DNA from: an uncultured bacterium
Lineage (GTDB): Bacteria > Acidobacteriota > Thermoanaerobaculia > Multivoradales > JAHZIX01
NCBI GenBank assembly: GCA_965368975.1
Contig: CBDUPA010000004.1
Coordinates: 96,001 to 160,000, forward strand
Reading direction: 5' to 3'
Length of the DNA: 64,000 bases
Each line of letters begins with the position of its first letter. The stretch's first letter is position 1. A program made the translations under genes and the position numbers. The notes under the pieces were generated by a model. That model saw nothing but the letters and a program-made list of their open reading frames with translations. It had not been told where the DNA came from and did no database searches. Below, piece after piece: positions 6,569-50,139 of the stretch.

Positions 6569-6572
6569 TCCC

Positions 6573-7163
6573 CTACGGGGCGGCGCTGAACAGGCCGGCG
6601 AAGCCCATGAAGGCCATCGACAGGATGCCGGCCATGATCAAGCTCATGGCAGTGCCGCGCAGGATGGAAGGGATCGAGGAGAGTTCGGCTTCTTCGCGCA
6701 GGCCGGCCATCAAGACGAGCGCAAGTGTCAGGCCGCCGCCGGCGCCTAGGGCGAAGACGATGCCCTCGAGCACGCCGTACTCGCGGCTGGTCTGGAACAG
6801 CGCCAGGGCGAGAATCGCGCAATTGGTGGTGATCAGCGGCAGGAAGATGCCGAGGGCCTGGAACAGCACGGGACTGACCCGCCGGATCACCATCTCGACG
6901 AACTGCACGGTGCTGGCGATCACGACGATGAAGCTGATCAGGCGCAGGTAGGGCGCGTACGGCAGCACGAAAGCTTCCAGGAAGGACGCCGCCAGCGAGG
7001 TGATCACCATCACGAAGATGTTGGCCATTCCCAGACGCAGGGCGGTCGCCAGGCGTCCCGAGACGCCGAAGAAGGGACACAAGCCGAGGAAGTACGACAA
7101 CGTAAAGTTGTTCACCAGCAGGGCGCTGACGAAGATCCACAGCAGCTGGCCGGAGTTGTTCAT
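6573..7163 (-). CDS. rnfA: Rnf electron transport complex subunit A
   Basis: VNNFTLSYFLGLCPFFGVS; LGIFLPLITTNCAIL; about 6 TM helices. Confidence 0.95.
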   Translation of the reverse strand: MNNSGQLLWIFVSALLVNNFTLSYFLGLCPFFGVSGRLATALRLGMANIFVMVITSLAASFLEAFVLPYAPYLRLISFIVVIASTVQFVEMVIRRVSPVLFQALGIFLPLITTNCAILALALFQTSREYGVLEGIVFALGAGGGLTLALVLMAGLREEAELSSIPSILRGTAMSLIMAGILSMAFMGFAGLFSAAP

Positions 7164-7876
7164 GCCGCCTCCTCCTGGCTCTTGCGCTTATCTTGGCTGG
7201 CCCGTTGCGCGTCGGCCGCCTGCTGCAGTCGCCGGGCCGCCTTGTCGCGGGCTTCGCGCAGGCTGGCGAAGAGCAGTAGCAAGAAGCCCAGCATCAGGAA
7301 GCCACCCGGCGGCAGGATCATGATCACCCAGGGTTCGAAGTTGGGTCCGAACAGGGATCTACCAAAGAGCGCACCGCTGCCCAGGACCTCGCGCGCACCG
7401 CCCAGCACCACCAGGGCGAGGGTGAAGCCGGCCCCCATGCCGGCGGCGTCCGCCAGCGCCGGGCCGATACGCTGCTTGGAGGCGAAGGCTTCCTGGCGAC
7501 CGAGGATCAGGCAGTTGACCACGATCAGGGAGATGAAGGCGCCGAGCTCGCGGTGGACGTTCGGCACCAGGGCCTGCAACAGCAGGTCGGCGACGGTGAC
7601 GAAGGTGGCGATGATCAGGATGTAGGTGGAGATGCGTACTGGTCGCGGAATCCAGTGCCGTAGCGCCGACACCAGGAAGCTGGAGCCGACCAGCACGAAG
7701 AAGGTGGCGCCGCCCATGGCCAGGCCGTTGACGCCGCTGTTGGTCACCGCCAGGGCTGGGCACATGCCGAGTACCTGGACGAAGACGGGGTTTTCGCGCC
7801 ACAGGCCCTTGACGAATTCCGAGGTCAGGTCGGGGCGCGGGTCTGGCGGCAGCACCGGCAGCAGGGGTTCACTCAT
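7160..7876 (-). CDS. rnfE: Rnf complex subunit E
   Basis: ENPVFVQVLGMCPALAVT; LIVVNCLILGRQEAFA; LPPGGF. ATG at 7876 overlaps the rnfG stop. Confidence 0.95.
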   Translation of the reverse strand: MSEPLLPVLPPDPRPDLTSEFVKGLWRENPVFVQVLGMCPALAVTNSGVNGLAMGGATFFVLVGSSFLVSALRHWIPRPVRISTYILIIATFVTVADLLLQALVPNVHRELGAFISLIVVNCLILGRQEAFASKQRIGPALADAAGMGAGFTLALVVLGGAREVLGSGALFGRSLFGPNFEPWVIMILPPGGFLMLGFLLLLFASLREARDKAARRLQQAADAQRASQDKRKSQEEAA

Positions 7877-8486
7877 GGTGAACCTCGGGCAGGCGCTCGA
7901 GCCATTGGGCGTTGGCACTGTTGATGATCTCGACCACGGCACGCGAGGAAATGGTGGCGCCGCTGATGGCGTCGACCTGGTGCGCGGCCTGGGCGTCGTC
8001 CTGCACCAGCTCGACCCGTGGGGACACGGCCAGGTCACGGAAGGCGGCCTGGAAGTCGGGGTCCTTGTAGATGCGGTCACCCAGGCCTGGCGTCTCGCGG
8101 CTCTCGAGGATCGCCAGGCCGACGATGCGCCCGCGCTGCGGGTCGTAGCCGTAGAGCAGGCGGATGGTGTCCTGGAAGCCGGCGCCTTCGCCACGAATGG
8201 CGTAGCCCACCAGGGTGTCGTCCGCGTAGCCTGCGTAGACCATGGCTGCCGCGGTTGCATCGTCCCCGGTTGGGGCGCCGGATGAGTACTCCAGAACCAA
8301 GCGTTCCATGCGCTGGGCGCCGGGCAGCACCTGGAAGACGGCGCGCTCCAGGGCGGCGGCCTGGTTGGCGCGGATGGTCGGCAAGGTGGCCTGGTGCACG
8401 GTGGCGATGGTGAGGCCGGAGAACAGGCCGGCGACGGTGAGTGTCGCCACCAGACGTAGAGTGCTCTCGCCCGCTGGGCGCTTCAT
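7869..8486 (-). CDS. rnfG: Rnf complex subunit G (FMN-binding)
   Basis: N-terminal TM helix; ETPGLG; covalent FMN motif DAISGATISS. Confidence 0.95.
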   Translation of the reverse strand: MKRPAGESTLRLVATLTVAGLFSGLTIATVHQATLPTIRANQAAALERAVFQVLPGAQRMERLVLEYSSGAPTGDDATAAAMVYAGYADDTLVGYAIRGEGAGFQDTIRLLYGYDPQRGRIVGLAILESRETPGLGDRIYKDPDFQAAFRDLAVSPRVELVQDDAQAAHQVDAISGATISSRAVVEIINSANAQWLERLPEVHHE

Positions 8487-9487
8487 GGCAGCCCCCGAGC
8501 GTGCCCGAAGGCGCGAGGTTGTGTGACCCGCTCGAGCAGCGGCGTGGCCGCGTTCATCAGCAGGATGGCGTACATCACGCCTTCCGGCAGGCCACCCCAG
8601 ATGCGGATCAGCACCACCAGCAGGCCGATGCCGAGGCCGAAGAACCAGGCACCGCGCGGGGCGAGCGGCGAGGTCACCGGGTCGGTGGCCATGAAGACGG
8701 CGCCGAACAGCAGGCCGCCGGAGGCGAGCATGAACCAGGGCGACGGGTAGCGCTCAGCGTCGAGGGCGAAGAACAGGCCGGAGAGGGCGGCGACGGCGAG
8801 CAGAATGGCGGTCGGAATGCGCCAGTCGAAGGCGCGCCGCAGCAGCAGCCAGAGGCCACCCAGCAGGATGGCGGCGGCGCTGGTCTCGCCCAGGCTGCCG
8901 GCGACGTGCCCCCAGACCAGGTCGGGCAGCGGCGTCGCTTCCTGCGTGAACTTCATCAGGTTCAGCGGCGTCGCGCCGCTCAGGCCGTCTGGCGGCGGTG
9001 GTGGGCTGAGGAAGGGCCAGGCGAAGGTGCTGGGCAGCAGGGTCGTGGGGCCGGAGGGTCGCACCCAGGTGGTCAGCGCGGTCGGGAAGGCGGCCTGCAA
9101 GAAGGCTCGGCCCACCAAGGCCGGGTTGAAGAGGTTCTGGCCCAGGCCGCCCCACATCAGCTTGCCCATGCCCATACCCACCGCGCCACCCAGGAAGGCC
9201 ATCCACAGCGGCAGCGAAGGGGGCAGGGTGAGGCCCAGGAGGGCTCCGGTCAGCAAGCCGCTGCCATCGGTGGTGGCACCCGACGTGCCCCACAGGCGTT
9301 CGCAACCGACGCTACCGGCGGTGGCCGCCAGCACGACCAGCAGGGCACTGAGACCGAAATTCCACACCGCCACTGCTAGTACTGGCAGCAGGGCCAGCTG
9401 CACGTCGGTCATCAGGGCGGGGGTGGTGACCCCTTGGCGCAGGAAGGGCGCCGCCTGGACGATGAGGTGAGGCTGGCGTCGACTCAT
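8483..9487 (-). CDS. rnfD: Rnf complex subunit D
   Basis: GGLGQNLFNPALVGRAFL; FMN site SGATPL; GSLGETS; FMATDPVTSP. Start MSRRQPHL at 9487 has an ATGA overlap with rnfC. Confidence 0.95.
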   Translation of the reverse strand: MSRRQPHLIVQAAPFLRQGVTTPALMTDVQLALLPVLAVAVWNFGLSALLVVLAATAGSVGCERLWGTSGATTDGSGLLTGALLGLTLPPSLPLWMAFLGGAVGMGMGKLMWGGLGQNLFNPALVGRAFLQAAFPTALTTWVRPSGPTTLLPSTFAWPFLSPPPPPDGLSGATPLNLMKFTQEATPLPDLVWGHVAGSLGETSAAAILLGGLWLLLRRAFDWRIPTAILLAVAALSGLFFALDAERYPSPWFMLASGGLLFGAVFMATDPVTSPLAPRGAWFFGLGIGLLVVLIRIWGGLPEGVMYAILLMNAATPLLERVTQPRAFGHARGLP

Positions 9488-10875
9488 GCCTTGGTCTCCG
9501 ATGCCTTCGTCTCCGGGCGTGGCGCGGGCTTTGGAGCCTGACGCGCGCGCAGCTGACCTTTGGCCACCCGGATCAGCTGCACGATCGGGATGTTCGATGG
9601 ACAGGCGAAGCTGCAGGAGCCGCACTCGACGCAGTCCAGGGTGTGCAGGTCGGCGAGCTCGTCGAGCCGGCCGACGCGCGCCAGGCGTGCCAGGCGCGAC
9701 GGATTCAGATACTGCGGGCAGGCCTCGACGCAGCGGCCGCAGCGAATGCAGGCATACTCCTTGGCCAGGCGGGCGGTCTCTTCGGTGAACGCCAGGATAC
9801 CAGAGGTGCCCTTGAGCACCGGTACATCCAGGCTGGCCAGCGGCATGCCCATCATCGGCCCGCCCATGACCACCTCGCGCACCTGCGACTCTAGCCCGCC
9901 GCAGTGGTCGAGCAGCGCACGCACCGGCGTGCCCACCGGCACCAGCAGGTTGGCGGGACGGCGCACGCCCGGGCCGGCGACGGTGACGACACGCTCGATC
10001 AGCGGCACGCCATGATCGAACCAGCTGGCCAGAGCAGCCATGGTGGCGACGTTGTTGACCAGCATCTCGACGTCCAGCGGCAACTTGCCCGCCGGCACCT
10101 CGACGCCGAAGATGGCCTCGATCAGCATCTTCTCGGCGCCCTGCGGGTACTTGACCTCCAGCGGTACCACGCGCACCGGCACCCCGCCGAGGTGGTTGTC
10201 GGCGGCGGCCAGCTCGCCGCGCAGCGTGTCGAGGGCGTCCGGCTTGTTGAGCTCGACGCCGATCACCGCTTCCTCGACGCCCAGCCGCTGTGCCAGGATC
10301 TCGATGCCGCGCAGGATCTGCCGTGGCTGCTCCACCATCAGCCGGTGGTCGGCGGTCAGGTAGGGTTCGCACTCGCAGCCGTTGATCACTAGGTGACGCA
10401 AGCGCTTGCCCTCGGGTAGGCGGTACTTGACGTGCGACGGAAAGGCGGCGCCGCCCATGCCCACCAGGCCGGCATCCTGGACCTGCTGCACGAACTCGTC
10501 GGCACTCAGTTCCTGCCAGGGGATCGCTGGACCTTCGGGCGGCTGCTGGTCGGCGAAGGGATCGGCGTCGATCACCAGCGCCGGCTTCCACTGGCCAGCG
10601 GGATGATGACGCGGACCCAGTGCACGGACGCGGCCGGTGACCGGGCTGTGCAGGGTGGTGGAGACGAAGCCGTCGGCGGCCGCCACCGGCTGACCGCGCC
10701 GGACCTCCTCGCCCGGCTGCACCAGCGGTCGCGCGGGAGCGCCGGCGTGCTGCGACAAGGGCAGGACGTAGCTGTCCACAAACGGCATGCGCTCGATGCG
10801 CAGGTGTTCGGTGGCGTCCTTGTGTTCCTGTGGATGGATGCCGTGACGGAAGGTGCGCACCGGCACGCTGCTCAT
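9484..10875 (-). CDS. rnfC: Rnf complex subunit C
   Basis: GLVGMGGAAFP; NGCECEPY; KYPQGAEK; MGGPMMG; two CxxCxxCxxxCP motifs. Confidence 0.95.
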   Translation of the reverse strand: MSSVPVRTFRHGIHPQEHKDATEHLRIERMPFVDSYVLPLSQHAGAPARPLVQPGEEVRRGQPVAAADGFVSTTLHSPVTGRVRALGPRHHPAGQWKPALVIDADPFADQQPPEGPAIPWQELSADEFVQQVQDAGLVGMGGAAFPSHVKYRLPEGKRLRHLVINGCECEPYLTADHRLMVEQPRQILRGIEILAQRLGVEEAVIGVELNKPDALDTLRGELAAADNHLGGVPVRVVPLEVKYPQGAEKMLIEAIFGVEVPAGKLPLDVEMLVNNVATMAALASWFDHGVPLIERVVTVAGPGVRRPANLLVPVGTPVRALLDHCGGLESQVREVVMGGPMMGMPLASLDVPVLKGTSGILAFTEETARLAKEYACIRCGRCVEACPQYLNPSRLARLARVGRLDELADLHTLDCVECGSCSFACPSNIPIVQLIRVAKGQLRARQAPKPAPRPETKASETKA

Positions 10876-13800
10876 GATGCCTCCTCGCCTTCCAGCATCA
10901 GGCTGAGGAAGCGTTGCTTGATGCGCTCGGCGGTGCTGCGCTGCCAGGCTTCGTGTCGCAGGGGGTCATCGGCACCATCTGCAGTGCCGGCATCCTGGGC
11001 CGCACCTTGTACGCTCTCCGCCGGGCCGCTCAGCCGGTGCAGCAGCCGCGACGTCGTCAGCTGTTGCTGCAGCGCCGCGGTCAGCTCCGGGGTCGGCTGC
11101 TGCTCTGCGAAGTAAGCCGCAAAGCGCTGCTGGCGCTGGGCCCAGTGCACGGCGGCTTGCAAGGTCTCGTCAGCCTCCAGATCACCATTCTCCGTGCTCG
11201 CGTGCAGCCGCAGCGTCGAGAACGGGCCTGAGAACACCGGGCCTGGGGACAATGCCGAGCCCGGGCCGGCCTCGCGTTGGAAGAGAGGAAAGACGCGCGA
11301 GGTGACGGCTTCCCGGGCTCGGCAGAGGGTTTCCTCGGGGGCAAAACCGTGCCGCGAGGGGCTCGGCGCATAGAGGCGTAGGACGGCGGTTCCGGGGTGG
11401 CGCAACACCGTCTCGACGCTGGCCACCAGGTGTTGCGGATGGGCGATCGACGTCTGCGCCAGCGCCGTGTGCGCGCGGCCGAGTAGCAGCGGCATGGGGT
11501 CGAGATCGATGGATTGCGGCGGCTGCAAGGTGTCGTGGTCGGTGGCCGGCAGGCCGAGGCGGAGGTCGGCCAGGAGTAGTAGCTTGATCGGGGCGTCGAT
11601 GGACTGCAGCGCCAGCAGAGCCTCGAACTCGCCCGGCCGCAGCGAAGCTTCGGCGGCGAGCACGAAGAGCGGCGGACACAGGTGACGTTCGTCTGAACTC
11701 AGCTGCTGCCAGGGCAGCGAGAGGGGAATCGGGTCGTCCATCTTCACCGTGGACGCATCATCGAGCAGCGTGCGGGCATGGCGCAGCAGGGCCGCGACCT
11801 CACCGGTGCGGGTCATCTGGGCTTCGGCCACGCCGCGTGCCAGTGCCGCTACCTCGCCAGGGCCAGCGAAGCTGACCGCGGAGGCGAAGACGTTGTACGG
11901 GAAGCGGCCGCTCCACTCGGCCAGGCTGCCGGCGGCGACCACCGCACTCCAGGGGACCGGCGCTCGACGCCACCGGTCCGCGAAGTCGGCGAGTTGGCGT
12001 GCCGCGGTGACCAGGCGGCGCAAGTGTGGGATGTCGACCTGCGGCTGCTCCAGCGCTGCCTCGACTTTGGCGCTCAGCTGCGCCAGTTCGGCCTGGGGCG
12101 CGGCCAGGGCGTCGAGCCCGCGGGCCAGGGCGTCGAGGTCGCTGTCTGGCAGGGCACCTTCGAGTGTCCGGTGGATGGCGGCCGCTAGCTCGTCGCGCAA
12201 CTCGTCTAGCTGCTCGTTCCACTGCCTGCGACGCGGCAGCAAGCAGGCGCTGGCGGCACCCAGGACCTGCCGCACGGCGATTGCCTCGCCGCTACCCGCC
12301 TCGGCACCCGTGGCGGCCAGGATCCGGCGGTGGTCGGCGGGCAGCAGGGCGGCGGCCAATGGATCGAGTCGTGGCTCGAGCGCGGGCTGTTCGAGCGTGG
12401 ACTGAGCGAGCGCGTCGGTGTTGAGTGGCGGTAGTGTGTTCAGCAGGTCGACGCGCGTGCGTTCGAGGCTGGCGCGCCCGGCGTCCAGTGGCGCGGCGTT
12501 CAACGCCTCGGGCTTGCAGGCGGCGATGCACAGCCCGCAGGCGGTGCAGGCATCCGGGTCGATAGCGAGGCTGAACAGCTGTGGCTTGGGTATGCCTTCG
12601 AAGAATGGGGCGTCGAAGAAGCGGGCGGTGCGACCGAGCTGGAGCGTGGCGACCTCGTCGCGCAAATGAGGGAAGGCTTCGCGGATCAACTGCTTGCGCT
12701 CGGCGGGCAGCGGGGAAGTCTCGAGCACGCTGCCGAGGGCGGCGTCGAGCAGCGGGCCGGCGGTCGCGCCCGGGTTCGTTTCCGTGCCGGGGTTCTCGCG
12801 CAGCGCCGTTTCCAGGCCGCTGGCGAGGGCGCCGAGCACCATGCGCAGGGGCGTCACCGGTTTGCCGGCTTCGCTGGCCCGGCGCAGTCCCAGCTCGAGC
12901 AGGGCCTTGGCGGAGAAGACGGCCGGGTGGATCGCGGCTTCCGGACAGACGCTCCAGCAGGCACCGCTACCGGTGCAGCGCGACGAGTCGAGAGCCGGCA
13001 GACGGTCGGGGAGCCGGGGTGGTCGCAGGCTGGCGCTCAGCGGTGGTTCGAGTCCCAGGGCCAGGTAGGGGTCGGGAATCAGGTCAGGCGTCGCGATGCG
13101 GCTGCGGAAGTCTGGCAAGGGACTGTCGTCCTGGTCCTGGTGAGGGCTGTGCTGGTGCAGGCGACGCGCGGCGGCTGGCAGTGCCGTGGTGGCCGCGGGT
13201 TCGGTCGTGGTGGCACGCAGGCCGAGCGGGGCGGCGTCGGGGTAGGAACGCAGCAGGGCGTCGATGGTCGCTTGCCGCTTGGGGTGAGCCTGGAGGTCCG
13301 GCGCCAGATCGAGGCCGAGGAAGCGCGGGATCGCCGCGGCAGCTTCCGTCGCCGGCCGTGAGCTACGCTTGCGCTTGCCGTTCGTCGTCGCACGGCTCTG
13401 CAGCAGCCGTCGGACGAGCTGTTCCAGGTCGGCAGCCTGCAGCGCCGTGCCGCCGAGGCCGTAGAGCACGCTGTGCAGGGTGGGGGCGTCGGCGGCGCGG
13501 GAACCCCTCTCATGAACCCCGCCCAGCACCCTACCCACCGCCGCTTGCAGCTGTTGGGTCAGGGGACCCTCGAGGGTCGCGGTCACTGGCGTACGTTCGA
13601 GCACCGCTACGTGAGCAACGCCTGCCTGTGCCGCTGCGGTCAGAGCCTCGACCATCTCCGCGTCCGGGAAGGGGCTGAGCAGGTGCAGGCCGAGTACGCC
13701 GAGCCGGACACGTTCCTTGGCAGGGCGCTCCGCTAGATGATCCGCCAGCGCGCGCGCGCCCGCGATCGCCGTGCCCATCGCCACCACCGCGACCTCGGCG

Positions 13801-14621
13801 TCCTCGAGTCGGTATCGACTCACCGGGCCGTGGTCGCGGCCGGTCCGCTCGGCCAGCCGCTGGCAGGCCCGGTCGAAGGCGGGGCGCAGCCCTGGCCGCA
13901 GGTAGACGGAGCGTGCGGCTACAGCGGCGGCGAAGCTCTCGGCGCTGGCGGGACCGGCGGCGGCGGTCGGCTGCTCGCTGTCGTGCCAGCGCGGTACCCG
14001 CCGTCGATGGCGACCGAAGATCAGTCGCTGGGCCTCGTCCGGCGGATGGATGAGCTCCTCGGGGCGCCCTAGCAGTTCGCGCAGCAGAGCGGCGGCCGGC
14101 AGTTCGACGTCGACCGGCTGGCGGGCGATCTCAGGGTCGAGGGCGATCACCACGGGGGTCAGGGCTTGCTCGGCCAGCTGTCGCCCGAGCACGGCGAAGT
14201 CGATCACTTGCTGGGTGTCGGCCGCGACCAAGGTCACCGCGCCACTGCCGGCCGCGGCATGCCAGGAGTGATGACCGGCGGCGGTGGGCGCAACGTCCGT
14301 GCCACCCGGTTCCAGGCCCAGGTAGGCCAGCAGCGGTAGACTTTGAGACGCTGCGGCGGCCAGCGAGGCTCGATCCGAGCCGTGGGGATCGAGGACGGCG
14401 GTGGCCCGACGGCCGCCCAGGGCGAGACCGACGGCGCGGGCCAGATCTGCCGGGCCATGGCTCGCTTCGGGCGCCACCGCGGCTTCCATCAGGGCCACCG
14501 CGGCAGCGCCGTCCAGCCTGCGCGGTAGTCCTTCGGCGAGCGGGATGTGGTTCGTCGTCGGGTCGAGCCCGAGCAGGCGACGGACCCAGGGGCGGCGCAG
14601 TGCGGCGTTCCAATCAGGCAT
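10872..14621 (-). CDS. Degenerate pyruvate:ferredoxin oxidoreductase (PFOR/NifJ)-like Fe-S protein, probably non-catalytic
   Basis: PFOR domain II (YRLEDAEVAVVAMG...LSPFP...YGLGG), ferredoxin motifs CTGSGACWSVCP and CTACGLCIAAC, and a beta-domain remnant (AVTSRVFPLF). YPITP, GDG and the beta-domain cysteines are absent. Start MPDWN at 14621. Confidence 0.8.
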   Translation of the reverse strand: MPDWNAALRRPWVRRLLGLDPTTNHIPLAEGLPRRLDGAAAVALMEAAVAPEASHGPADLARAVGLALGGRRATAVLDPHGSDRASLAAAASQSLPLLAYLGLEPGGTDVAPTAAGHHSWHAAAGSGAVTLVAADTQQVIDFAVLGRQLAEQALTPVVIALDPEIARQPVDVELPAAALLRELLGRPEELIHPPDEAQRLIFGRHRRRVPRWHDSEQPTAAAGPASAESFAAAVAARSVYLRPGLRPAFDRACQRLAERTGRDHGPVSRYRLEDAEVAVVAMGTAIAGARALADHLAERPAKERVRLGVLGLHLLSPFPDAEMVEALTAAAQAGVAHVAVLERTPVTATLEGPLTQQLQAAVGRVLGGVHERGSRAADAPTLHSVLYGLGGTALQAADLEQLVRRLLQSRATTNGKRKRSSRPATEAAAAIPRFLGLDLAPDLQAHPKRQATIDALLRSYPDAAPLGLRATTTEPAATTALPAAARRLHQHSPHQDQDDSPLPDFRSRIATPDLIPDPYLALGLEPPLSASLRPPRLPDRLPALDSSRCTGSGACWSVCPEAAIHPAVFSAKALLELGLRRASEAGKPVTPLRMVLGALASGLETALRENPGTETNPGATAGPLLDAALGSVLETSPLPAERKQLIREAFPHLRDEVATLQLGRTARFFDAPFFEGIPKPQLFSLAIDPDACTACGLCIAACKPEALNAAPLDAGRASLERTRVDLLNTLPPLNTDALAQSTLEQPALEPRLDPLAAALLPADHRRILAATGAEAGSGEAIAVRQVLGAASACLLPRRRQWNEQLDELRDELAAAIHRTLEGALPDSDLDALARGLDALAAPQAELAQLSAKVEAALEQPQVDIPHLRRLVTAARQLADFADRWRRAPVPWSAVVAAGSLAEWSGRFPYNVFASAVSFAGPGEVAALARGVAEAQMTRTGEVAALLRHARTLLDDASTVKMDDPIPLSLPWQQLSSDERHLCPPLFVLAAEASLRPGEFEALLALQSIDAPIKLLLLADLRLGLPATDHDTLQPPQSIDLDPMPLLLGRAHTALAQTSIAHPQHLVASVETVLRHPGTAVLRLYAPSPSRHGFAPEETLCRAREAVTSRVFPLFQREAGPGSALSPGPVFSGPFSTLRLHASTENGDLEADETLQAAVHWAQRQQRFAAYFAEQQPTPELTAALQQQLTTSRLLHRLSGPAESVQGAAQDAGTADGADDPLRHEAWQRSTAERIKQRFLSLMLEGEEAS

Positions 14622-15486
14622 GGGCTCCGACCTCCTCCCGCGGAGCTTGCGGTGGTGGCTCGACCTCCTGCAGTTCCAGGAACTGTGCCCCCTCGACCCA
14701 GCGGATAGCGCCGGTGGGGCAGCGCCAGGTCGCCGCTGGCGTCGCCGGGCCGCCGGCACCGTAGTCCACCACGGGCAAGCCGTCCTGCATGCGGATCAGG
14801 CCAGCCGGTGCGTCCTGGGCGCAGCGGCCGCAGGCGTCGCAGGCCACGGTGCACAGGCGGCGGGCCTGCTCGGCCTCGAGCGGCGCTCGGCACTGCACGA
14901 TCAGGTGGTGCGACAGCGGCAGGATCTCGAACAGGTCGCGTGGGCAGGCGTCGACGCAATCACCGCAGGCGGTGCACTTGTCGACATCGACCTCCGGCAG
15001 CTTCCAGGCGTTCATGTGGATGGCCCCGAAGGTGCAGGCGACGTCGCAGTCCGCGTGCCCCAGGCATCCCCACGAACACTCCAGGCCGCCGCCGCCCACC
15101 AGGTGCGCGGCGCGGCAGGAGTCGAAACCCTGGTAGGCCGCGACTTGCAGGGCACGGCCGACGCCACCGGCGCAGTGCAGGCGGGCGACGCGCTTCTCTT
15201 CGGCGCCGACCTCGATGCCCAGCAGGGCCGCGATGGCGTCCAGCTGTGGCCGGGTCGACACCGTGCACTTCGAGGGAGCCACGTCACCGTGCAGCAGTTT
15301 CTCGGCCAGGCCACGACAGCCGGGTTCGCCGCAGGCGCCGCAATTGGTGCCGGGCAGCATCTCGACCACCGCTTCCAGTCGTGGATCTTCCTCCACCGCC
15401 AGGAAGCGATGCGCCAGCGCCAGGGCGAGCCCGAAGGCCAGGCCGAGGCCCGCCATGATCGCCGCCGCTGTCAGCATTCCCGACAT
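14614..15486 (-). CDS. rnfB: Rnf complex subunit B
   Basis: N-terminal TM helix; LPGTNCGACGEPGC; CSWGCLGHADCDVAC; CTACGDCVDACP; CDACGRC...RCPTGAI. Start MSGML at 15486. Confidence 0.92.
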   Translation of the reverse strand: MSGMLTAAAIMAGLGLAFGLALALAHRFLAVEEDPRLEAVVEMLPGTNCGACGEPGCRGLAEKLLHGDVAPSKCTVSTRPQLDAIAALLGIEVGAEEKRVARLHCAGGVGRALQVAAYQGFDSCRAAHLVGGGGLECSWGCLGHADCDVACTFGAIHMNAWKLPEVDVDKCTACGDCVDACPRDLFEILPLSHHLIVQCRAPLEAEQARRLCTVACDACGRCAQDAPAGLIRMQDGLPVVDYGAGGPATPAATWRCPTGAIRWVEGAQFLELQEVEPPPQAPREEVGAHA

Positions 15487-15502
15487 CGTGACCTCCTGGC
15501 CC

Positions 15503-18037
15503 CTACTGGAAAGGCTGCGCGCGGCGCACCCATTCTTCGAGGCCCGGCTCGTCGGGGTCGAGCGGGGTACCCGGGTGGATGATCTTTGCCGTACAGCGTT
15601 CGGCGGCCTTGACCAGCTGCTGGAAGGTGCCGGCGCTGGCGTCCGCAATGTAGGCCTGCTTGTTCTCGTCGTAGGCGAACATCGCGGAGTTGATCTGAAT
15701 GCACTCGTTGCAGCTCGTGCACAGGGGAGAGTCGATGTAGGCCTCGAGTGTGGCGGTGTTGGCCTTGGAGGGGGCGACGGGGGGAGCGCTCGGGTTTGGC
15801 TTGCTCGGGGTTGGCTCCTTCGATTCGCTCGGAGCCGGAGCCGTCTCGGTGGCTTTGGGCTCGGCGAGCGGGACGGCCGCCCGGGATGCCGACGACGCTG
15901 GAAACGACGCAGCCGAGGCGGAGGGGGTGGCTTCGCGCAGCAAGGCGGTGGTGAGACGCTCGGCGAGCTGCTCGGCGGTTTGTCGGCGACCGCGCGCCAG
16001 CTCGTCGGCGTGCTGTGCTTCGAGGCGTGCGCGCTCGTCGCGGCGGGCCAGCTCGACCGCGCGCTCCACGTACTCGCTGCGCGTGCCGGCCATCTCCTGC
16101 AGCGTGCGCCAGTAGTCCAGGCGATCACGGCAGGTGGTGGCCAGGGTGCGGGGAACCAGGGCTCGCCGCAGCGTGCTGTCCGCGTCCACTACCCAGACGA
16201 ACGGCAGACGCCGCAGTGCGTCTTCTTCGTCCAGCGTCAGCCAGGACGCCAGCTCCAGGAGGGCGTCGTCGTGGCAGCCGGCGGGTAGCAGCCGCAGGCG
16301 GCGGGCCACGGCCGGGTCGAGGAGCGCGAAGTCGACGTAGGTGAAGGTCAACCGCAGCTGGTCCTCTTCGCCCTGCGTGTCCACCACCGCCAGGTCGTAC
16401 GCTGGCCAGTCTTGCTCAGCGGCCGGATTGCCTCCGAAGTCCATGCGCTGAGCCCAGCTGGTGCCCGCTTCCGGGTCATAGAGGAAGAGCGGGTGGGCAC
16501 GGCCGTCCAGGGCACCACCGCTGCACAGCCAAGGAGGAAGGTCTGCGGCCGCGACCGGCGACGTGCCGATCACGTGCAGGGCGGTGCGGTGGCGCTCGGC
16601 GGCCCGCAGGAAGCCGTGGATGCTGTGCAGGGGACGCAGGGCCAGGGTTTGATGTACCAGCGCCTCGCGGTGGCTGAGGCCGAAGTAGGCGAGCTCGAGG
16701 CGGAAGCCTTCCCAGGTCTCGGCAGGGAATGGCTCTTGAGAAGAGGGCTCGGGCGCCTGCAGGTGGCTGCGACGACTCGGGTCGACCTCGACCAGGATCT
16801 GGATCGGGCGTCCGGAGAGCAGCAGCTGCGACAGCGACGCCAGAGTGCTGCCGTCGAGCTGCTCGGCGTCGAGACGGACCGCCAGCGCCGGCAGCAGGCG
16901 GGCCTCCTCGTCCGAGAAGGCGCGCCAGTCGAAGTGCCGCAGCCAGGGCGTGTGGATCTCGCTCTCGTAGTCACCGGCCAGTTCCAGGCGAGCGGTGCGA
17001 GCGGCGCGCAGGATGCGCGTCAGTCGGGACGCCTCGCGATCAAAGGCGGCGGCGGCGGCGCCGCATGGGTCGTCGGCCCGTTGCACGGCCCAACCGGCGG
17101 TCTCGGTCAACGGGGGGGGCTGCGCCGAGGCTTGCGCTGACACGAAGAGCCTCGGCGGCGATGGCTCGCTGAACTCGAGCAGCGCGGCGTGAGTGTCCTC
17201 CAGTCGCTGGCGACGGCCGTGATCGTTCGCGCTGTGTCCCTCGTGCTCATGAGCCAGACGCTGGTGCAGAGCGCTGGTGTCCAGGAAGCGCGTTCCGAAG
17301 GCGCCGAGTGCGCCTTCTTCGTCATGCTTGCCGTTGTCGGCGTCGCCGGTCGCACCAGCGTTGCCGTTCGCGCCGGCCTCGCCGCTACGCCGGCGCGCTT
17401 CGGCGAGCAGACCGGCCAGCTTCTCTACCCAGCCGCGCACCTGCAGGCGCAGGCGGGCCCAGGTCGCTACCTGGCGCTGCTGCAGTACGGCCCGCAACAG
17501 GTGCAACGGAACCTCGTCGTCGGCCCCGAGCCAGACACCGTCCTCGGGTACGGCCTCGAGCAAGCGCTGCAGATCAGCCTGTAGCTGCTCGCGGACCGCC
17601 GCCGCAGGATCCAAGTCTTGCACCATGGTGTCCGCCGCGCTCCGCAGTAGCGGCCTGGCGGCGGTGGGTTGTGGCAGTAGCAGGTCAGCCATGTAGCGTT
17701 CCAGGCGTTGCACGTTGTCGCGCAGCGGGCCGGCGCTGATGCCGGCGTGGCGCAGCGCCCGCCCCAGCAGTTCGGCGGGCGACAGGCAGAGGATCGGCTC
17801 GCTGCTCTCTTCACCCGCCGCGGCCAGGAAGAGTGGGAAATCGCTGCGCAGCTGGACACCGTGGCGGAAGGGGCTGAACAGGGCCGGCCAGCAGGCCGTG
17901 GCCGGGTCGCCCGGCTCGGCCAGGGTCGGAGCCTCGTCGGAGAGGCCGAGGTGGAACGCACGCAGCGCGCGCACCTGGGTACGCTCGAGCGTCTCCTGGT
18001 CGGCGGGTAGCGTTGGTTTCAAGTTGGCAGCATCCAT
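15503..18037 (-). CDS. Large protein with degenerate PFOR beta-like domain and C-terminal ferredoxin
   Basis: LSQLLLSGRPIQILV...GRAHPLFLYDPEAG...GNPAAEQDW resembles the PFOR C-terminal domain without the TPP motif. An A/P/S/E linker leads to YIDSPLCTSCNEC...ERCTAKIIHPG. Confidence 0.75.
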   Translation of the reverse strand: MDAANLKPTLPADQETLERTQVRALRAFHLGLSDEAPTLAEPGDPATACWPALFSPFRHGVQLRSDFPLFLAAAGEESSEPILCLSPAELLGRALRHAGISAGPLRDNVQRLERYMADLLLPQPTAARPLLRSAADTMVQDLDPAAAVREQLQADLQRLLEAVPEDGVWLGADDEVPLHLLRAVLQQRQVATWARLRLQVRGWVEKLAGLLAEARRRSGEAGANGNAGATGDADNGKHDEEGALGAFGTRFLDTSALHQRLAHEHEGHSANDHGRRQRLEDTHAALLEFSEPSPPRLFVSAQASAQPPPLTETAGWAVQRADDPCGAAAAAFDREASRLTRILRAARTARLELAGDYESEIHTPWLRHFDWRAFSDEEARLLPALAVRLDAEQLDGSTLASLSQLLLSGRPIQILVEVDPSRRSHLQAPEPSSQEPFPAETWEGFRLELAYFGLSHREALVHQTLALRPLHSIHGFLRAAERHRTALHVIGTSPVAAADLPPWLCSGGALDGRAHPLFLYDPEAGTSWAQRMDFGGNPAAEQDWPAYDLAVVDTQGEEDQLRLTFTYVDFALLDPAVARRLRLLPAGCHDDALLELASWLTLDEEDALRRLPFVWVVDADSTLRRALVPRTLATTCRDRLDYWRTLQEMAGTRSEYVERAVELARRDERARLEAQHADELARGRRQTAEQLAERLTTALLREATPSASAASFPASSASRAAVPLAEPKATETAPAPSESKEPTPSKPNPSAPPVAPSKANTATLEAYIDSPLCTSCNECIQINSAMFAYDENKQAYIADASAGTFQQLVKAAERCTAKIIHPGTPLDPDEPGLEEWVRRAQPFQ

Positions 18038-18050
18038 CGCGTCTTTCCAC

Positions 18051-19004
18051 TCAGATGACGAACTTGTCGAGAACGCGCTCCAGCCCTTCGAGTTTCTCGG
18101 TCTGGCTCATGTCGAGCCCGCGCACGGTGGTCTCGTCGTAACAGGGCGCTTGTGCGTTGCGGTACAGGAGGCCGATCGATACCGGATCGGTACCCTCCGC
18201 GTAGCGGCGGGCGGCTTCCAGGTCCGCGGGGTCGTGTTCAGCCTTCTTCTTGTATAGCCGCCCGACCGGCTCGTCGACCGGGATGCCGTCTTCGTGGACC
18301 AGCAGTTGCAAGCGATCTGGGTCGTTGCGTAGCTCCAGCAACACGTCGTCGGTGTAGGTGGGGCAGCGCTGCAGGATGTGGACGAAGGCGAGGCCCGGAT
18401 GGTCGGCGGCCAGGCGCAGGGTCTGGTAGAGGTGCATCGGATTCCAGTCGACGCTGCGCGCGACGAAGGAGACGTTGCACAAGCCGAGCGCGACCAGCGC
18501 CGGATTGAGCGGCGGCAACAGGGCACCGCCGGGGTGGGTGTTGGTGTGGTACCCGATTGGCGTGGTGGGCGAAGTCTGCTTCTTGGTCAGGCCGTAGATG
18601 TTGTTGTCGAACAGCATCACCGTCATGCGGCAGTTGTAGCGCAGCGCGTGCACCCAGTGGCCAGCGCCGATCGAGCAGCAGTCGCCGTCGCCGGTGGCGA
18701 CGAAGATGTGCAGATCGGGCCGACGGCTGCGAATACCCGCGGCCACTGGCAGCGGCCGGCCGTGCAGACCGTGGAAGCCGTAGGAGTGCATGTAGTGGGG
18801 GAAGCGACTCGAGCAGCCGATGCCGGACACCGCCACCAGCTTCTCGGGTGGGATCTGCTGGTCACGGCAGATGCGCTGCACCGCGGATAGCACCGCGTGG
18901 TCGCCGCAGGCCGGGCACCAGCGTGCTACGCCGCCGTCGTAGTTCTCGAGGGTGAAGTAGCGGTCGGGGACCTCGAAGGCCCAGTCGCTGTTCATGCCGA
19001 ACAT
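18051..19004 (-). CDS. korB: 2-oxoacid:ferredoxin oxidoreductase beta subunit
   Basis: WCPACGD; SGIGCSS; TPP motif GDGD...DNNIYGLTKKQTSPT; CPTY. Confidence 0.93.
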   Translation of the reverse strand: MFGMNSDWAFEVPDRYFTLENYDGGVARWCPACGDHAVLSAVQRICRDQQIPPEKLVAVSGIGCSSRFPHYMHSYGFHGLHGRPLPVAAGIRSRRPDLHIFVATGDGDCCSIGAGHWVHALRYNCRMTVMLFDNNIYGLTKKQTSPTTPIGYHTNTHPGGALLPPLNPALVALGLCNVSFVARSVDWNPMHLYQTLRLAADHPGLAFVHILQRCPTYTDDVLLELRNDPDRLQLLVHEDGIPVDEPVGRLYKKKAEHDPADLEAARRYAEGTDPVSIGLLYRNAQAPCYDETTVRGLDMSQTEKLEGLERVLDKFVI

Positions 19005-20887
19005 GCTGCCTCCTCACCGCGTTGCAGGCGGCGTTCGAGTTCGCGGACGATTGCGCGAGGGGGAATCGGCTGGCCGTGGACCACGGACCAGCAGCCGATG
19101 TCGTGCAGGGTGTGCTCGCGTAGTAGTCGCGCCAGCTGGCCGCTACGCCGGTATTCGGCAGGGATGCCGCTGTCCGCGGTGTCGCTGTAGTTCATCTCGA
19201 TCGTCATCACCTGGGTGAAGCGATCGAAGATGCCAGCCAGACCGGGCTCCAGCGGCGACAGGAAGCGCAGGTGCAGCGAGGAGACCTTGTGGCCGGCCTC
19301 GCGCAGCTGGTCGACGGCCTCCTCGAGCGCACCCAGGGTCGAGCCCCAACCCACCACCAGCAGATCGCCCTCGGGGTCCCCGTGGAGCGCCGGCGGCTTG
19401 AGCGTCGAGGCCAGGGTGGCCAGCTTGCGGCTACGCATGGCGCAACCGCGCTGGTTGCTCTCTGGGTCGTAGGCGACCTTGCCCAGGCGCGTGTGTGCCA
19501 GGCCGGTGAGCACGTACTCGCCACCGCGCTGCCCGGGGATCGGTCGTTGCGACAGGCCGGTCTCGGCATCCCAGTCGTAGGGTGCCACATCCTGCGGCCA
19601 GGGCGATTGGTCGACCGGCGGTGACAGCCACTCGGCGCTCGGTCGCGGACGCGGGAAAGGCTGGACGCCGGTGGCCAGGTTGGCGTCGGTGAGCACGAAG
19701 ACCGGTGTGCGGAAGTCTTCCGCCAGGCGTCGCGCCAGCACCATGAAGTGGAAACACTCCTCGATCGTCGCCGGCGCCAGCACCACTTTGGGGGCGTCGC
19801 CCGGCGTGCCGTGCAGCACTGCCAGCAGGTCTGCTTGCTCGACCTTGGTCGGCAACCCGGTAGACGGGCCCCCGCGCTGCACCAGCAGTACCACCAGCGG
19901 CAACTCGGCCATCACCGCGAGGCCGATGAACTCGGTCTTCAACGCCAGGCCCGGGCCGGAGGTGATGGTGCAAGCGGTCTTGCCGGCATAGCTGGCCCCC
20001 AGGGCGTAGCCGATGGCGGCGATCTCGTCCTCCGCCTGGTGCACGATACCGCCCACCGCGGGGAAGGCGGCGGCCAGGAAGTGCGAAACCGACGTCGCCG
20101 GGGTGATCGGATACATCGCCACCACCTCGATTCCCGCGGCCATGATGCCCAGACCTGCAGCCTGGTTTCCGTTCATCACCACCAGTTCCTGTTCGGTCGG
20201 CCGGGGTGGCACCTCGAAGCGCAGGTCGAGGCGTTCGGCGGCGAAGGACCAGCCAGCGCGCACTAGATCCTGGTTGGTCTCGACCACCTGCTCGCCCTTG
20301 CGTGCGAAGACGGCCTTCACCTCGTGCAGCGCCTTGTCCAGGTCGCGGCCGTAGATCTGGCACAGCACGCCGAGCACGAACATGTTGCGACCGACGCGGG
20401 CGTCGCCGGCAATCTCGGCGCAGGCCTCCTGCAGCGCCACCTCGATCACGTGTAGCCCGCGTTCCTGGAAGCTGGCCAGGGCCTCGGCATATTGCTGCCG
20501 GATCTCCTCCTGCGGGTCTTGCGCCCAGCTGCTCTCTAGCAGGATGACGGTGCCTTCGCGGTAGGCTTCCTGGGCGATGCGGCCGTAGATCACTTGCTCG
20601 TTGAACGCGACCACCAAGTCTGCCTCGTCGCCCAGGTTGGTCACCTTGCGGTCGGCGAAGCGTACTCGGATGCCGCTGGCTCCCGCCCGCGAGCGTGCCG
20701 GCGGCTTGATTTCGGCGGGAATGATTTCCACCGTCCAGACGCCGTTGCCCATCTTGGCGCAGACGGTGCCGAAGATCTGTCCGGCCTTCTGCGCACCTTC
20801 GCCCGAGTCACTGACGATTTCGACGATCGCCTGGTGTACGCGGGCCCTCTCTTGGACTCCTGCCGGAGTCGAGACTGCAGTACCCAT
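18992..20887 (-). CDS. korA: 2-oxoacid:ferredoxin oxidoreductase alpha subunit (gamma-alpha fusion)
   Basis: DSGEGAQ; YPITPAT; QAEDEIAA; TSGPGLALK; QRGGPSTGLPTK; VGWGST. Confidence 0.93.
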   Translation of the reverse strand: MGTAVSTPAGVQERARVHQAIVEIVSDSGEGAQKAGQIFGTVCAKMGNGVWTVEIIPAEIKPPARSRAGASGIRVRFADRKVTNLGDEADLVVAFNEQVIYGRIAQEAYREGTVILLESSWAQDPQEEIRQQYAEALASFQERGLHVIEVALQEACAEIAGDARVGRNMFVLGVLCQIYGRDLDKALHEVKAVFARKGEQVVETNQDLVRAGWSFAAERLDLRFEVPPRPTEQELVVMNGNQAAGLGIMAAGIEVVAMYPITPATSVSHFLAAAFPAVGGIVHQAEDEIAAIGYALGASYAGKTACTITSGPGLALKTEFIGLAVMAELPLVVLLVQRGGPSTGLPTKVEQADLLAVLHGTPGDAPKVVLAPATIEECFHFMVLARRLAEDFRTPVFVLTDANLATGVQPFPRPRPSAEWLSPPVDQSPWPQDVAPYDWDAETGLSQRPIPGQRGGEYVLTGLAHTRLGKVAYDPESNQRGCAMRSRKLATLASTLKPPALHGDPEGDLLVVGWGSTLGALEEAVDQLREAGHKVSSLHLRFLSPLEPGLAGIFDRFTQVMTIEMNYSDTADSGIPAEYRRSGQLARLLREHTLHDIGCWSVVHGQPIPPRAIVRELERRLQRGEEAACSA

Positions 20888-20920
20888 GGTCCATGCCTCC
20901 CGTCAGGCACAGGAGCGACG

Positions 20921-21364
20921 TCAGTCGCCGGTGCCAAGATCCGTGTAGACAGAGTCGAGGAACAACTCGGTCTCCTCTACCTCGTGGGCATGGAGACGCT
21001 GTGCCAGGTCGGCGACGCCGCTGAGCAAGTCGGCCATCGGGCCGTTGCTGAGGGCGCGGGCGCTGCCCAACAAGTGGTCGAGATCACCGAGGAACTGTCG
21101 ATGCTCCTCGAAGAGGTGCTCCACTGAGGGCAGTAATTGCGGTGTCGATCGACCGACGGCAGCGCTCAGACCATCCTCGGCCTCCTCGGTCTCGAAGTGG
21201 GCGCGCAGCAGGGTCTGCAACTTCTCGAGATCCTCGGCCAGACGACCGGGGGCGTCGAGTTGCACGATCTCGTCGAGCAGGGCCGAGAGGGCCGCATGCT
21301 CGTCGGCAATACGAGTCTTGGCCGCAGCGGTAACCGCGGACTCTCTCTCTTCACTATTCGGCAT
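20921..21364 (-). CDS. Hemerythrin-like (HHE) di-metal protein
   Basis: H...HFETEE...EEH...HEVEE pattern in a predicted four-helix bundle. First gene of the redox operon; alternative start at 21382. Confidence 0.8.
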   Translation of the reverse strand: MPNSEERESAVTAAAKTRIADEHAALSALLDEIVQLDAPGRLAEDLEKLQTLLRAHFETEEAEDGLSAAVGRSTPQLLPSVEHLFEEHRQFLGDLDHLLGSARALSNGPMADLLSGVADLAQRLHAHEVEETELFLDSVYTDLGTGD

Positions 21365-21608
21365 CAGGGGCCTCTCTTCCATTGCCTTGTGCCGGGTTGG
21401 CCCACCGTGTGGAGGTGGGCGTCTCCTGAAGCTCTGGAAGTGATGATGCCGTCGAGTTGGGACGTTGGCTATACCTGCCGGGGTGGTTCGGACGTTCTGG
21501 GCACTGTCCGAACAGGTGGCTCGCGCCTCGACAGGGCCAGCTGATCACGCCAAGCGATTCTTGGTGCCGCTCACTCCCCATCTGGGTAGTCTGGTCCACC
21601 GTCGTCAG

Positions 21609-21617
21609 TGATATTCT
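21609..21617 (+). promoter_or_regulatory. Extended -10 promoter element, probably giving leaderless ACP mRNA
   Basis: TGaTATTCT lies 6 nt before ATG 21624; no SD. Confidence 0.55.
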
Positions 21618-21623
21618 CGCGCC

Positions 21624-21851
21624 ATGGACAAGGAAAAAGTTGCCCGTGACGTACTTTCCCAGTTGAGTGGCGTCGACGCCGCCAAGATCGAGCCGAAGAT
21701 GGACCTGGTTGCTGACCTGGGGATCGACTCTCCGAAAGCTCTGCAACTGCTCGTCGAGCTGGAAGACCGCTTGAGCATCGAGATCAGCGACGAGGCGGCG
21801 GCTCGGATGGACACGGCGGGCGATATCTTCGACTTCTTAGCGACCGCGTGA
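21624..21851 (+). CDS. Acyl carrier protein
   Basis: 75 aa, acidic, DLGIDS phosphopantetheine site. Confidence 0.9.
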   Translation: MDKEKVARDVLSQLSGVDAAKIEPKMDLVADLGIDSPKALQLLVELEDRLSIEISDEAAARMDTAGDIFDFLATA

Positions 21852-48064: not shown

Positions 48065-48090
48065 ACGGACTTTCGTCAAAGGAAGCAAGT

Positions 48091-48723: not shown

Positions 48724-48742
48724 AGGTGAAGAGGATGAACGC

Positions 48743-50134: not shown

Positions 50135-50139
50135 GTTGC

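Follow-up and report, generated by a model that had tools for sequence, protein, structure and literature searches.

Energy metabolism under anaerobic and microaerobic conditions depends centrally on Rnf complexes and on ferredoxin-dependent 2-oxoacid oxidoreductases, and a pool of free ferredoxin is thought to link them. To our knowledge, the known Rnf complexes take their electrons from free ferredoxin and contain no subunit derived from pyruvate:ferredoxin oxidoreductase (PFOR). The solved 2-oxoglutarate:ferredoxin oxidoreductase (OGOR) 6n2n works with a separate small ferredoxin. Here we describe an operon in a 64,000-nucleotide stretch of DNA, referred to as the window, from an uncultured bacterium of the Acidobacteriota (contig CBDUPA010000004.1, positions 96,001 to 160,000). 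As in the canonical complex RnfABCDGE (9ERI, 7ZC6, 8AHX), all six Rnf subunits are encoded with their expected domains; unlike in the canonical complex, a 3.75-kb PFOR-derived gene, Y, lies between rnfB and rnfC, and an oxidoreductase gene pair, korA and korB, is found upstream in the operon together with a second PFOR-derived gene, X. We consider it rather likely that the operon provides one dedicated electron path between the 2-oxoacid oxidoreductase and the ion-translocating Rnf complex, via a ferredoxin borne by X and via Y. The substrate of the oxidoreductase, as judged from its sequence, is most likely 2-oxoglutarate.

The locus is a run of eleven co-oriented genes on the minus strand at 6573-21382, in the order hemerythrin-like gene, korA, korB, X, rnfB, Y, rnfC, rnfD, rnfG, rnfE and rnfA (Table 1). 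Apart from the insertion of Y, the order of the rnf genes resembles the rnfBCDGEA type, which we take to be that of Bacteroides and Chlorobium. Seven junctions overlap, by 13 nt (korA/korB), 8 nt (rnfB/Y and rnfG/rnfE) or 4 nt (Y/rnfC, rnfC/rnfD, rnfD/rnfG and rnfE/rnfA), with the starts of rnfB, Y, rnfD and rnfE placed at the Met that suits the N-terminus of the family and meets the upstream stop; the remaining three junctions are gaps of 33 nt (hemerythrin-like gene to korA), 13 nt (korB to X) and 16 nt (X to rnfB). The open reading frame (ORF) coordinates together with Pfam and NCBIfam bear out the co-oriented run with overlapping or close junctions that a first-pass annotation of this DNA had described. 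The only small difference concerns the end of the operon, given there as 21364, which is the second Met of the hemerythrin-like gene, the first ATG being at 21382. The same annotation noted that the window has no stand-alone small ferredoxin gene. A strict scan of all six frames for CxxCxxCxxxC-type motifs agrees for canonical motifs, matching RnfB and RnfC only and missing the variant motifs of Y and X; it shows only that no small ORF in the window carries a canonical ferredoxin motif. No promoter or terminator was detected by a scan of 6000-22000, which is weak in DNA of 64-72% G+C.

Table 1. Genes of the operon, in the order of transcription; positions refer to the window.
Gene	Position	Strand	Length (aa)	Description	Basis
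hemerythrin-like	20921..21382	-	153	HHE cation-binding domain; first gene of the operon	PF01814
korA	18992..20887	-	631	alpha subunit of a two-subunit 2-oxoacid:acceptor oxidoreductase, PFOR domains III-I-II	POR, POR_N, PFOR_II; TIGR03710
korB	18051..19004	-	317	beta subunit	TPP_enzyme_C, PFO_beta_C
X	15503..18037	-	844	putative non-catalytic PFOR-derived protein with tethered ferredoxin domain	profile-profile match to Y, AlphaFold2, Foldseek
rnfB	14614..15486	-	290	N-terminal membrane helix, Fe-S domain and ferredoxin-like domains	PF04060 + Fer4
Y	10872..14621	-	1249	putative full-length PFOR pseudoenzyme	profile match to 6cin, AlphaFold2, Foldseek
rnfC	9484..10875	-	463	NADH/FMN module with two [4Fe-4S] motifs	TIGR01945; RnfC_N, Complex1_51K, SLBB, Fer4
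rnfD	8483..9487	-	334		PF03116, 343.7 bits
rnfG	7869..8486	-	205		PF04205 FMN_bind, 63.9 bits
rnfE	7160..7876	-	238		PF02508, 213 bits
rnfA	6573..7163	-	196	last gene of the operon	TIGR01943; ORF table

The relationship of Y to PFOR is evident from both profile and structure comparison. A profile built from 20 Y relatives matches the PFOR of Moorella thermoacetica (6cin) with an E value of 2.1e-71 across domains I, II, V and VI, to which the long members add domain III, and 6cin is also the top Foldseek match (E 4e-24) of the AlphaFold2 (AF2) model of residues 1-1200 (pLDDT 76, pTM 0.80). The Y of the window comprises domains I, II and V and a VI-like domain with a helical insert, and is devoid of domain III. 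In comparison with the homodimeric PFORs of M. thermoacetica (6CIN) and Desulfovibrio africanus (1B0P), Y agrees in domain order and fold and X corresponds to their C-terminal part, but the thiamine pyrophosphate (TPP)-binding residues and the proximal cluster are missing in both proteins. In addition, a helical insert of ~85-100 residues in domain VI, common to Y, X and their intact relatives, and a ferredoxin tethered to X and to the intact relatives, set them apart from the homodimeric enzymes.

The motifs of the Y family were examined by aligning 20 members to a genuine PFOR encoded on contig C1 of the window's own genome. In all 20 members, domain I has lost its catalytic Glu, the CxxC motif its two Cys residues and the proximal cluster its fourth Cys, and GDG..N is gone as well; 64 of the 76 rows of the Y locus table show the same pseudo-type loss. 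The eight domain-V Cys residues are all retained in 18/20 members; in the Y of the window and in one further member the second position is Ser, so that the putative ligands in the window are C549, S552, C555 and C559 for one cluster and C692, C695, C698 and C702 for the other (7/8 Cys). Since the TPP motifs and the proximal Cys residues are lost while the domain-V Cys residues are kept, Y appears to be a PFOR pseudoenzyme that could bind at most two clusters.

The homology between X and Y is visible by profile comparison only: pairwise BLASTP between the two proteins gave nothing (best E 0.19), whereas profile-profile alignment places residues 45 to ~650 of X on residues 520 to ~1200 of Y (probability 100%, E 2.3e-38). 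X thus corresponds to the portion of Y that starts at domain V, and is paralogous to the C-terminal region of PFOR. Its first ~700 residues consist of a domain-V remnant without Cys, the helical insert and a domain VI/VII-like core, in which no Pfam or NCBIfam model was matched in the X of the window. They are followed by an Ala/Pro-rich, disordered tether (residues 704-761, ~55 residues) and by a ferredoxin domain (~762-844) whose C773, C776, C779 and C815 are invariant, as expected for a single [4Fe-4S] cluster. Among 28 aligned X rows, 24, including that of the window, lack the domain-V Cys residues, the proximal-cluster Cys residues and GDG..N, and the four rows that have these motifs are fragments of intact PFORs.

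This layout is reproduced in the AF2 model of X (pLDDT 82), where the core to ~700 and the last domain are confident and residues 704-761 fall to ~40. Foldseek relates the core to PFOR (E 4.8e-6) and to the beta chains of 2-oxoacid:ferredoxin oxidoreductases (OFORs; target-normalised TM 0.40-0.44), and the tail to ferredoxin I of D. africanus (1fxr; TM 0.84, rmsd 0.9). The profile of the X family also finds ferredoxin I (1dax, E 1.2e-8), while the X of the window, taken alone, matches Fer4_13 at its C-terminus only weakly (21.9 bits, the Pfam cut-off being 24.5). Across the alignment of X proteins, sister-branch X proteins and intact relatives, most linkers measure 26-59 residues and abound in Ala, Pro and Glu, a few being much shorter; in nearly all rows the ferredoxin motif begins ~72 residues before the C-terminus. 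As modelled, X would be an inactive PFOR-like core that carries a ferredoxin on a flexible tether. Because this ferredoxin domain is the sole Fe-S site of X, a swinging carrier fits the protein better than a rigid wire does.

The folds of X and Y are well preserved, and in the Y alignment 45 columns that lie outside the Cys motifs are invariant, an HRRRVPRWHD-like stretch among them. This is compatible with the idea that one or both proteins have retained a function independent of TPP, catalytic or ligand-binding, e.g. binding of CoA or acyl-CoA through domains I, II and VI, and serve as a sensor or as a new enzyme. We regard this explanation as very improbable, given that the catalytic Glu, GDG..N and the proximal cluster are all lost, that the Y of the window is also without domain III, and that X matches no known catalytic motif in Pfam or NCBIfam.

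The remaining genes of the operon are of standard types and are identified by Pfam and NCBIfam. KorA exceeds the cut-off of TIGR03710 (533.5 bits against 482.75), and its nearest solved chain is 6n2n_A (E 3.8e-82), titled in the fold library as the 2-oxoglutarate:ferredoxin oxidoreductase of Magnetococcus marinus. The catalytic Glu motif AEDE is present at residue 285 of KorA, and KorB has all of its motifs, namely CPAC at 30, GIGCS at 61, GDG..NN at 105 and CPTY at 214. As these TPP and cluster motifs are kept in KorB and AEDE is kept in KorA, KorAB is predicted to be an intact enzyme and the sole catalytic TPP enzyme of the operon. It resembles the solved OGOR in the full-length match of KorA, in the one-cluster TPP motifs of KorB and in having no delta ferredoxin subunit, and differs from it in that korB is followed by X, a pseudo-beta subunit with a tethered ferredoxin.

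The six core Rnf subunits A, B, C, D, G and E all carry their family domains in Pfam and NCBIfam, with RnfC (TIGR01945, 515 bits) and RnfD far over the cut-offs. RnfA scores slightly below the cut-off of TIGR01943 (216.8 against 229.3 bits) and RnfB below that of NF005503 (199.5 against 252 bits), while RnfB matches the solved Rnf complexes 9eri_B (E 1.8e-48) and 7zc6_B, and its hydrophobic N-terminal helix is kept in 64/64 extracted relatives. The rnf genes are non-contiguous, with Y inserted between rnfB and rnfC, and this interruption is conserved in relatives. The hemerythrin-like protein exceeds the cut-off of its Pfam family (30.1 against 25.3 bits) and has no NCBIfam match. A homologue precedes korA in 9 of the 49 related loci with enough flank; the gene is therefore an occasional accessory.

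The conservation of the cluster was evaluated by scanning the Y alignment against one genome per species, which yielded 79 distinct loci from at least seven named phyla. According to the record titles, they belong to Gammaproteobacteria (32), Acidobacteriota (16), Gemmatimonadota (6), Myxococcota (5), Hydrogenedentota (3), unclassified Pseudomonadota (3), Eiseniibacteriota (2), Spirochaetota (2), Alphaproteobacteria (1) and Actinomycetota (1), and 8 are unnamed. Most are metagenome bins, and some ORF calls in high-G+C DNA are over-extended. Synteny was mapped by tblastn with the eleven proteins of the window (E <= 1e-5, at which very divergent genes are possibly missed), counting only loci with sufficient flank. 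The rnfB gene lies directly 5' of Y in 64/67 loci and rnfC directly 3' in 62/67 (63 with locus L054 corrected), the full rnfCDGEA set following in 50/56. Upstream, X precedes rnfB-Y in 51/59 loci and both korA and korB are found in 41/50, so that the complete order korAB-X-rnfB-Y-rnfCDGEA is present in 32 of 45. Among the misses are several clusters that are cut short or extended; in L006 and L064, an extra gene pair displaces korA from view.

A candidate start of Y that overlaps or abuts the rnfB stop was found in 51/65 loci, with -8 as the commonest distance, although picking the start nearest to the rnfB stop biases this measure to small distances. The mean column identity is 65% for RnfB, compared with 39% for X and 38% for Y. 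The recurrence of the gene order across phyla argues that the arrangement is not due to chance. In a 201-genome sample of the window's phylum, 17 other genomes gave a best E value <= 1e-30 to Y; as these matches were not sorted into Y, intact relatives and ordinary PFOR, they indicate a patchy distribution only. No Y match at E <= 1e-30 was obtained in the same order or class within this sample, the best being 8.8e-14. The conserved linkage, together with the lack of a strong Y relative in the window's own order or class, suggests that the cluster moves among lineages as a unit.

X is also found in the company of KorAB where rnf is absent. A metagenome search with the deepest X branch (Betaproteobacteria in some source records) as the query gave 80 loci (L094-L173), in none of which (0/80) an rnf or Y match was detected. 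In this sister branch korB lies directly upstream of X in 56/57 loci and korA upstream in 35/36, preceded by a gene for a 500-residue GltD/NfnB-like protein (Fer4_20 + Pyr_redox_2; 30/30) and one for a PyrK/NfnA-like protein (DHODB_Fe-S_bind; 28/28). The five-gene operon of PyrK/NfnA-like gene, GltD/NfnB-like gene, korA, korB and X is common in metagenomes (e.g. L154:4502-6004, L162:3465-6116 and L143:3421-4431), and its domain content is reminiscent of a 2-oxoglutarate:NAD(P)+ oxidoreductase in which one subunit carries a tethered ferredoxin. A comparable enzyme is the 2-oxoglutarate:NADP+ oxidoreductase of Azoarcus evansii, which is likewise of the KorAB type and linked to a pyridine nucleotide, as the sister operons with their GltD/NfnB-like flavoprotein would be; the operon of the window has no gene for such an NAD(P)-binding flavoprotein. 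The Azoarcus enzyme is reportedly soluble, with neither Rnf nor an X-like subunit.

Taken together, the two sets of loci show KorAB-X as one unit that is paired with Rnf in some operons and with a soluble, NAD(P)-linked NfnAB-like module in others. Its partners are thus two distinct ferredoxin oxidoreductases, both NAD(P)-linked. That sister X follows korAB in rnf-free operons points to X as the partner of KorAB, whereas the relatives of Y in the same position, which are intact PFORs between rnfB and rnfC (see below), point to Y as the partner of Rnf. The first-pass annotation had proposed that X and Y are PFOR-derived, lack TPP motifs, keep Fe-S motifs and may serve as non-catalytic scaffolds or wires. 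The profile comparisons and motif alignments confirm their descent and the loss of the TPP motifs. The Fe-S motifs stand for the domain-V clusters of Y, but not for the core of X, which is Cys-free and leaves the tail ferredoxin only; and while both appear to be pseudoenzymes, they are not equivalent wires, one belonging to KorAB and the other to Rnf. The linkage of both genes to rnf and kor that had been pointed out in this genome recurs, as described above, in relatives across phyla.

Where the locus belongs to Gemmatimonadota, Hydrogenedentota or Spirochaetia, rnfB and rnfC flank a gene for a protein of 1540-1700 residues with strong POR_N, POR (domain III), PFOR_II, Fer4 and TPP_enzyme_C matches, and in the first two groups, though not in Spirochaetia, with a C-terminal Fer4_13 tail. 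Examples are L057:9779-14815 and L062:9800-14773, both tailed, and L067:9788-14410. These relatives keep the Glu, CxxC, GDG..N and the last Cys (10 of the 11 examined are intact and L073 is degenerate), and their third Cys is located in NATGC[ST]SVW, behind the helical insert of ~85-100 residues. The presence of intact PFORs in the position of Y suggests that Y arose from a real enzyme embedded in rnf. The intact type is also found directly 5' of rnfB, in the position of X, together with pseudo-Y in L006, L064 and L075 (Acidobacteriota/Thermoanaerobaculia), its ferredoxin tail being readable in L064 and L075 and not in L006.

Some Acidobacteriota clusters (L006:3385-8712, L064:1664-8704 and L009) contain an extra pair and read korB, X, intact tailed PFOR, rnfB, pseudo-Y and rnfC, from which it appears that a single Rnf operon may work for two oxoacid oxidoreductases that are both live. 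Gemmatimonadota have a tail-less ORF of 340-347 residues between korB and rnfB with a weak match to the X profile (E ~1e-8), and in these loci the tail sits on the intact PFOR instead.

A maximum-likelihood tree of the shared C-terminal region groups pseudo-Y in one clade (SH-aLRT 99) and X in another (100), with X nested among intact enzymes (clade support 99). The tree, obtained by a short search without the window's own Y and rooted on a single long-branched outgroup, the ordinary PFOR of the genome, is indicative only. To that extent, it suggests that Y and X are inactive descendants of a special clade of rnf-embedded PFORs that possessed the helical insert and the tethered ferredoxin.

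A census of the tails in the 55 loci where both positions are visible gives 48 with a tail-less pseudo-Y and a tailed X, two with a tailed intact PFOR at the Y position and no X, one (L067) with a tail-less intact PFOR and no X, and two with an intact PFOR in the X position. Nearly every cluster therefore has a tethered ferredoxin somewhere. These features can be accommodated by a chain in which electrons would pass from KorAB to the tethered ferredoxin, then (through Y) to RnfB and finally to NAD+. KorAB, as the only live TPP enzyme of the operon, would oxidise 2-oxoglutarate. The core of X would probably anchor the protein at KorAB, so that the tail ferredoxin could take up electrons at the single [4Fe-4S] cluster of KorB and swing to the entry side of Rnf. 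Y would probably be located at RnfB, as a docking site and perhaps as a two-cluster relay, and Rnf would reduce NAD+ and move ions, the whole path being reversible. The swinging lipoyl domains of 2-oxoacid dehydrogenase E2, which are carriers on Ala/Pro-rich linkers, offer an analogy, with a [4Fe-4S] ferredoxin as the carrier here; another, again not a matter of homology, is the pyruvate:NADP+ oxidoreductase of Euglena, in which a PFOR is fused to its acceptor and the oxoacid enzyme is thereby tied to it.

The same gene linkage might alternatively reflect co-regulation only, in which case KorAB and Rnf would be linked by soluble ferredoxin, and X and Y would protect or regulate oxygen-sensitive enzymes and offer no electron path. 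The hemerythrin-like gene at the head of the operon suits such an oxygen theme, and the genome has other ferredoxin-dependent enzymes but only one Rnf. However, co-regulation would explain neither the conserved Cys residues of the two Y clusters and of the X tail, nor the pattern of one tail per cluster, nor the intact PFORs at the position of Y, nor the presence of X next to KorAB in operons where another ferredoxin:NAD(P) module stands in for Rnf, and we thus consider it improbable.

If the dedicated path is accepted, its strongest form would be that KorAB, X, Y and Rnf constitute one stable membrane machine, an ion-pumping 2-oxoglutarate:NAD+ oxidoreductase independent of the ferredoxin pool or, in reverse, a gradient-driven 2-oxoglutarate synthase. 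In this machine the X tail would swing between the KorB cluster and a dock built by Y on RnfB; where a live PFOR replaces Y, as in Gemmatimonadota and Hydrogenedentota, it would become a pyruvate:NAD+ Rnf machine, and X would represent a large unnamed family of third KorAB subunits. We put this forward tentatively, as a possibility with less than even chances.

The direction of the path was considered in the light of the host genome, which is 7.1 Mb in size and 99% complete and has the operon as its only Rnf. A second cluster with RnfD/E/A-like genes on contig C1 was considered as a further Rnf and rejected, because RnfB, RnfC and RnfG have no match there; it looks Nqr-like. RuBisCO was not found in the genome, NifH had no match above the cut-off, and the E1 subunit of 2-oxoglutarate dehydrogenase is present (1053 bits); judging from this gene content, the host looks like a heterotroph. 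Since RuBisCO and NifH are lacking and 2-oxoglutarate dehydrogenase is present, the oxidative, ion-pumping direction is the more likely one in this genome, and the oxidation of 2-oxoglutarate in this heterotroph would become ion-pumping.

In the reverse direction, Rnf would use the ion gradient and NADH to reduce the ferredoxin of X, and KorAB would carboxylate succinyl-CoA for the reductive tricarboxylic acid (rTCA) cycle or anaplerosis. Rnf and KorAB-type enzymes are both reversible, and M. marinus, the source of the closest solved KorA relative 6n2n, is presumably an rTCA user. Moreover, the gammaproteobacterial loci, 32 of the 79, carry titles that include many sulfur-oxidising autotroph and symbiont lineages, and Rnf is proposed as a source of reduced ferredoxin for the rTCA cycle in the text of two symbiont papers (PMC6315080, PMC11636981). 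The gene content of the host, as given above, runs counter to this direction. So do the data on Endoriftia, in which, according to PMC11636981, a dimeric korAB (korAB(3)) and a 'PFOR-like' gene, possibly a Y homologue, drop together under H2S limitation while the rTCA cluster rises. For this genome we rate operation in reverse as about half as likely as oxidation.

Several observations weigh against a dedicated path from KorAB through X and Y to Rnf. The genome also encodes a true PFOR and two further OFOR alpha genes, and with one Rnf to serve them all, this Rnf probably has to accept free ferredoxin as well. The presence of 2-oxoglutarate dehydrogenase implies that KorAB is not essential for the cycle. 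The assignment of 2-oxoglutarate itself is inferred from the best solved relative, an OGOR, since TIGR03710, a generic subfamily model, is the only model whose cut-off is exceeded. Ser552 in the Y of the window may render the first domain-V cluster altered or of the 3Fe type, and two of the 55 loci in the tail census (L002 and L035) have pseudo-Y without X near rnfB. In addition, four loci of the tubeworm-symbiont type (L017, L023, L039 and L048) have no rnfCDGEA beside korAB-X-rnfB-Y, indicating that adjacency to the Rnf membrane core is not obligatory. Physical contact is supported by no result here, and the contacts between the proteins and the order X tail, Y, RnfB are inferred, as are substrate and direction. 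A complex prediction of Y 510-1249 with RnfB 35-290, each given as an alignment, scored 0.00 twice without controls, and nothing was drawn from it. One of the four symbiont-type loci bears on the substrate: in the annotated example L017, korAB-X-rnfB-Y is followed by sucC and sucD (14672-16847), which ties KorAB to the 2-oxoglutarate/succinyl-CoA step, and is preceded by a gene for a NuoF-like flavoprotein (904-2193) with Complex1_51K and NADH_4Fe-4S domains.

The architecture does not seem to have been described. The first-pass annotation did not know it as a characterised system, and our full-text search of the literature, which covered papers without the supplements of PMC6315080 and PMC11636981, found neither a PFOR-like gene between rnfB and rnfC nor korAB-X. 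The closest idea is that of the Hdr-Flx/korABCD rTCA cluster of tubeworm symbionts (PMC6315080), where an OGOR located among electron-transfer genes is perhaps directly wired. That OGOR has four subunits and Hdr-Flx as its partner, and that paper does not seem to describe X, rnfB and Y beside the dimeric korAB. According to the same paper, the Escarpia symbiont has a dimeric korAB 'elsewhere' with TCA genes, and the Hdr-Flx-OGOR complex is proposed for the other OGOR. Rnf and Kor are mentioned only separately in PMC6593406 and in a 2026 preprint.

If the proposed path is correct, oxidation of 2-oxoglutarate, or of pyruvate in the variants with intact PFOR, would be conserved as an ion gradient; in reverse, it would provide autotrophs and symbionts with a gradient-driven carboxylase. 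Carriers of the cluster include symbionts of tubeworms and lucinids, Woeseiaceae, Acidobacteriota, Gemmatimonadota and others; judging by their titles, loci L046, L024 and L042 come from relatives of Sedimenticola or Thiodiazotropha. Current metabolic models of these groups call X a 'ferredoxin' and Y a 'PFOR' or a '4Fe-4S protein', and may thereby count a dead enzyme as a live PFOR. The cluster also appears to show clearly how enzymes have become scaffolds while their live intermediates persist, and it gives a first functional lead for the X family, which comprises at least 1,758 cluster representatives at 50% identity (E <= 1e-30).

The genes flanking the operon are on the opposite strand and unrelated to it, being secretin and pseudopilin-like genes on one side and DUF374 and Mfd on the other. 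The 1199-residue ORF at 23225-26824 was considered as a PFOR and rejected, because it is Mfd. On the plus strand, an ORF of 343 residues (5537-6568) without a Pfam match has a pseudopilin-type hydrophobic N-terminus and a long Gly/Pro/Gln-rich tail; it is convergent with rnfA, and the two stops are 4 nt apart.

Elsewhere in the window, a release factor 2-like gene on the minus strand (56272-57394) appears to have the classical programmed +1 frameshift: a short ORF runs from the ATG at 57394 into AGGGGG TAC CTT TGA (~57330-57319), and an ORF of 334 residues from 57276 with PCRF and RF-1 domains continues in the +1 frame. The region 48000-56000 has a G+C content of 0.58-0.60, compared with ~0.65 elsewhere, and contains type IV pilus minor-pilin-like genes, among them those for a PilW-domain protein (48743-50134) and a PilY1-domain protein of 1458 residues (50899-55275).

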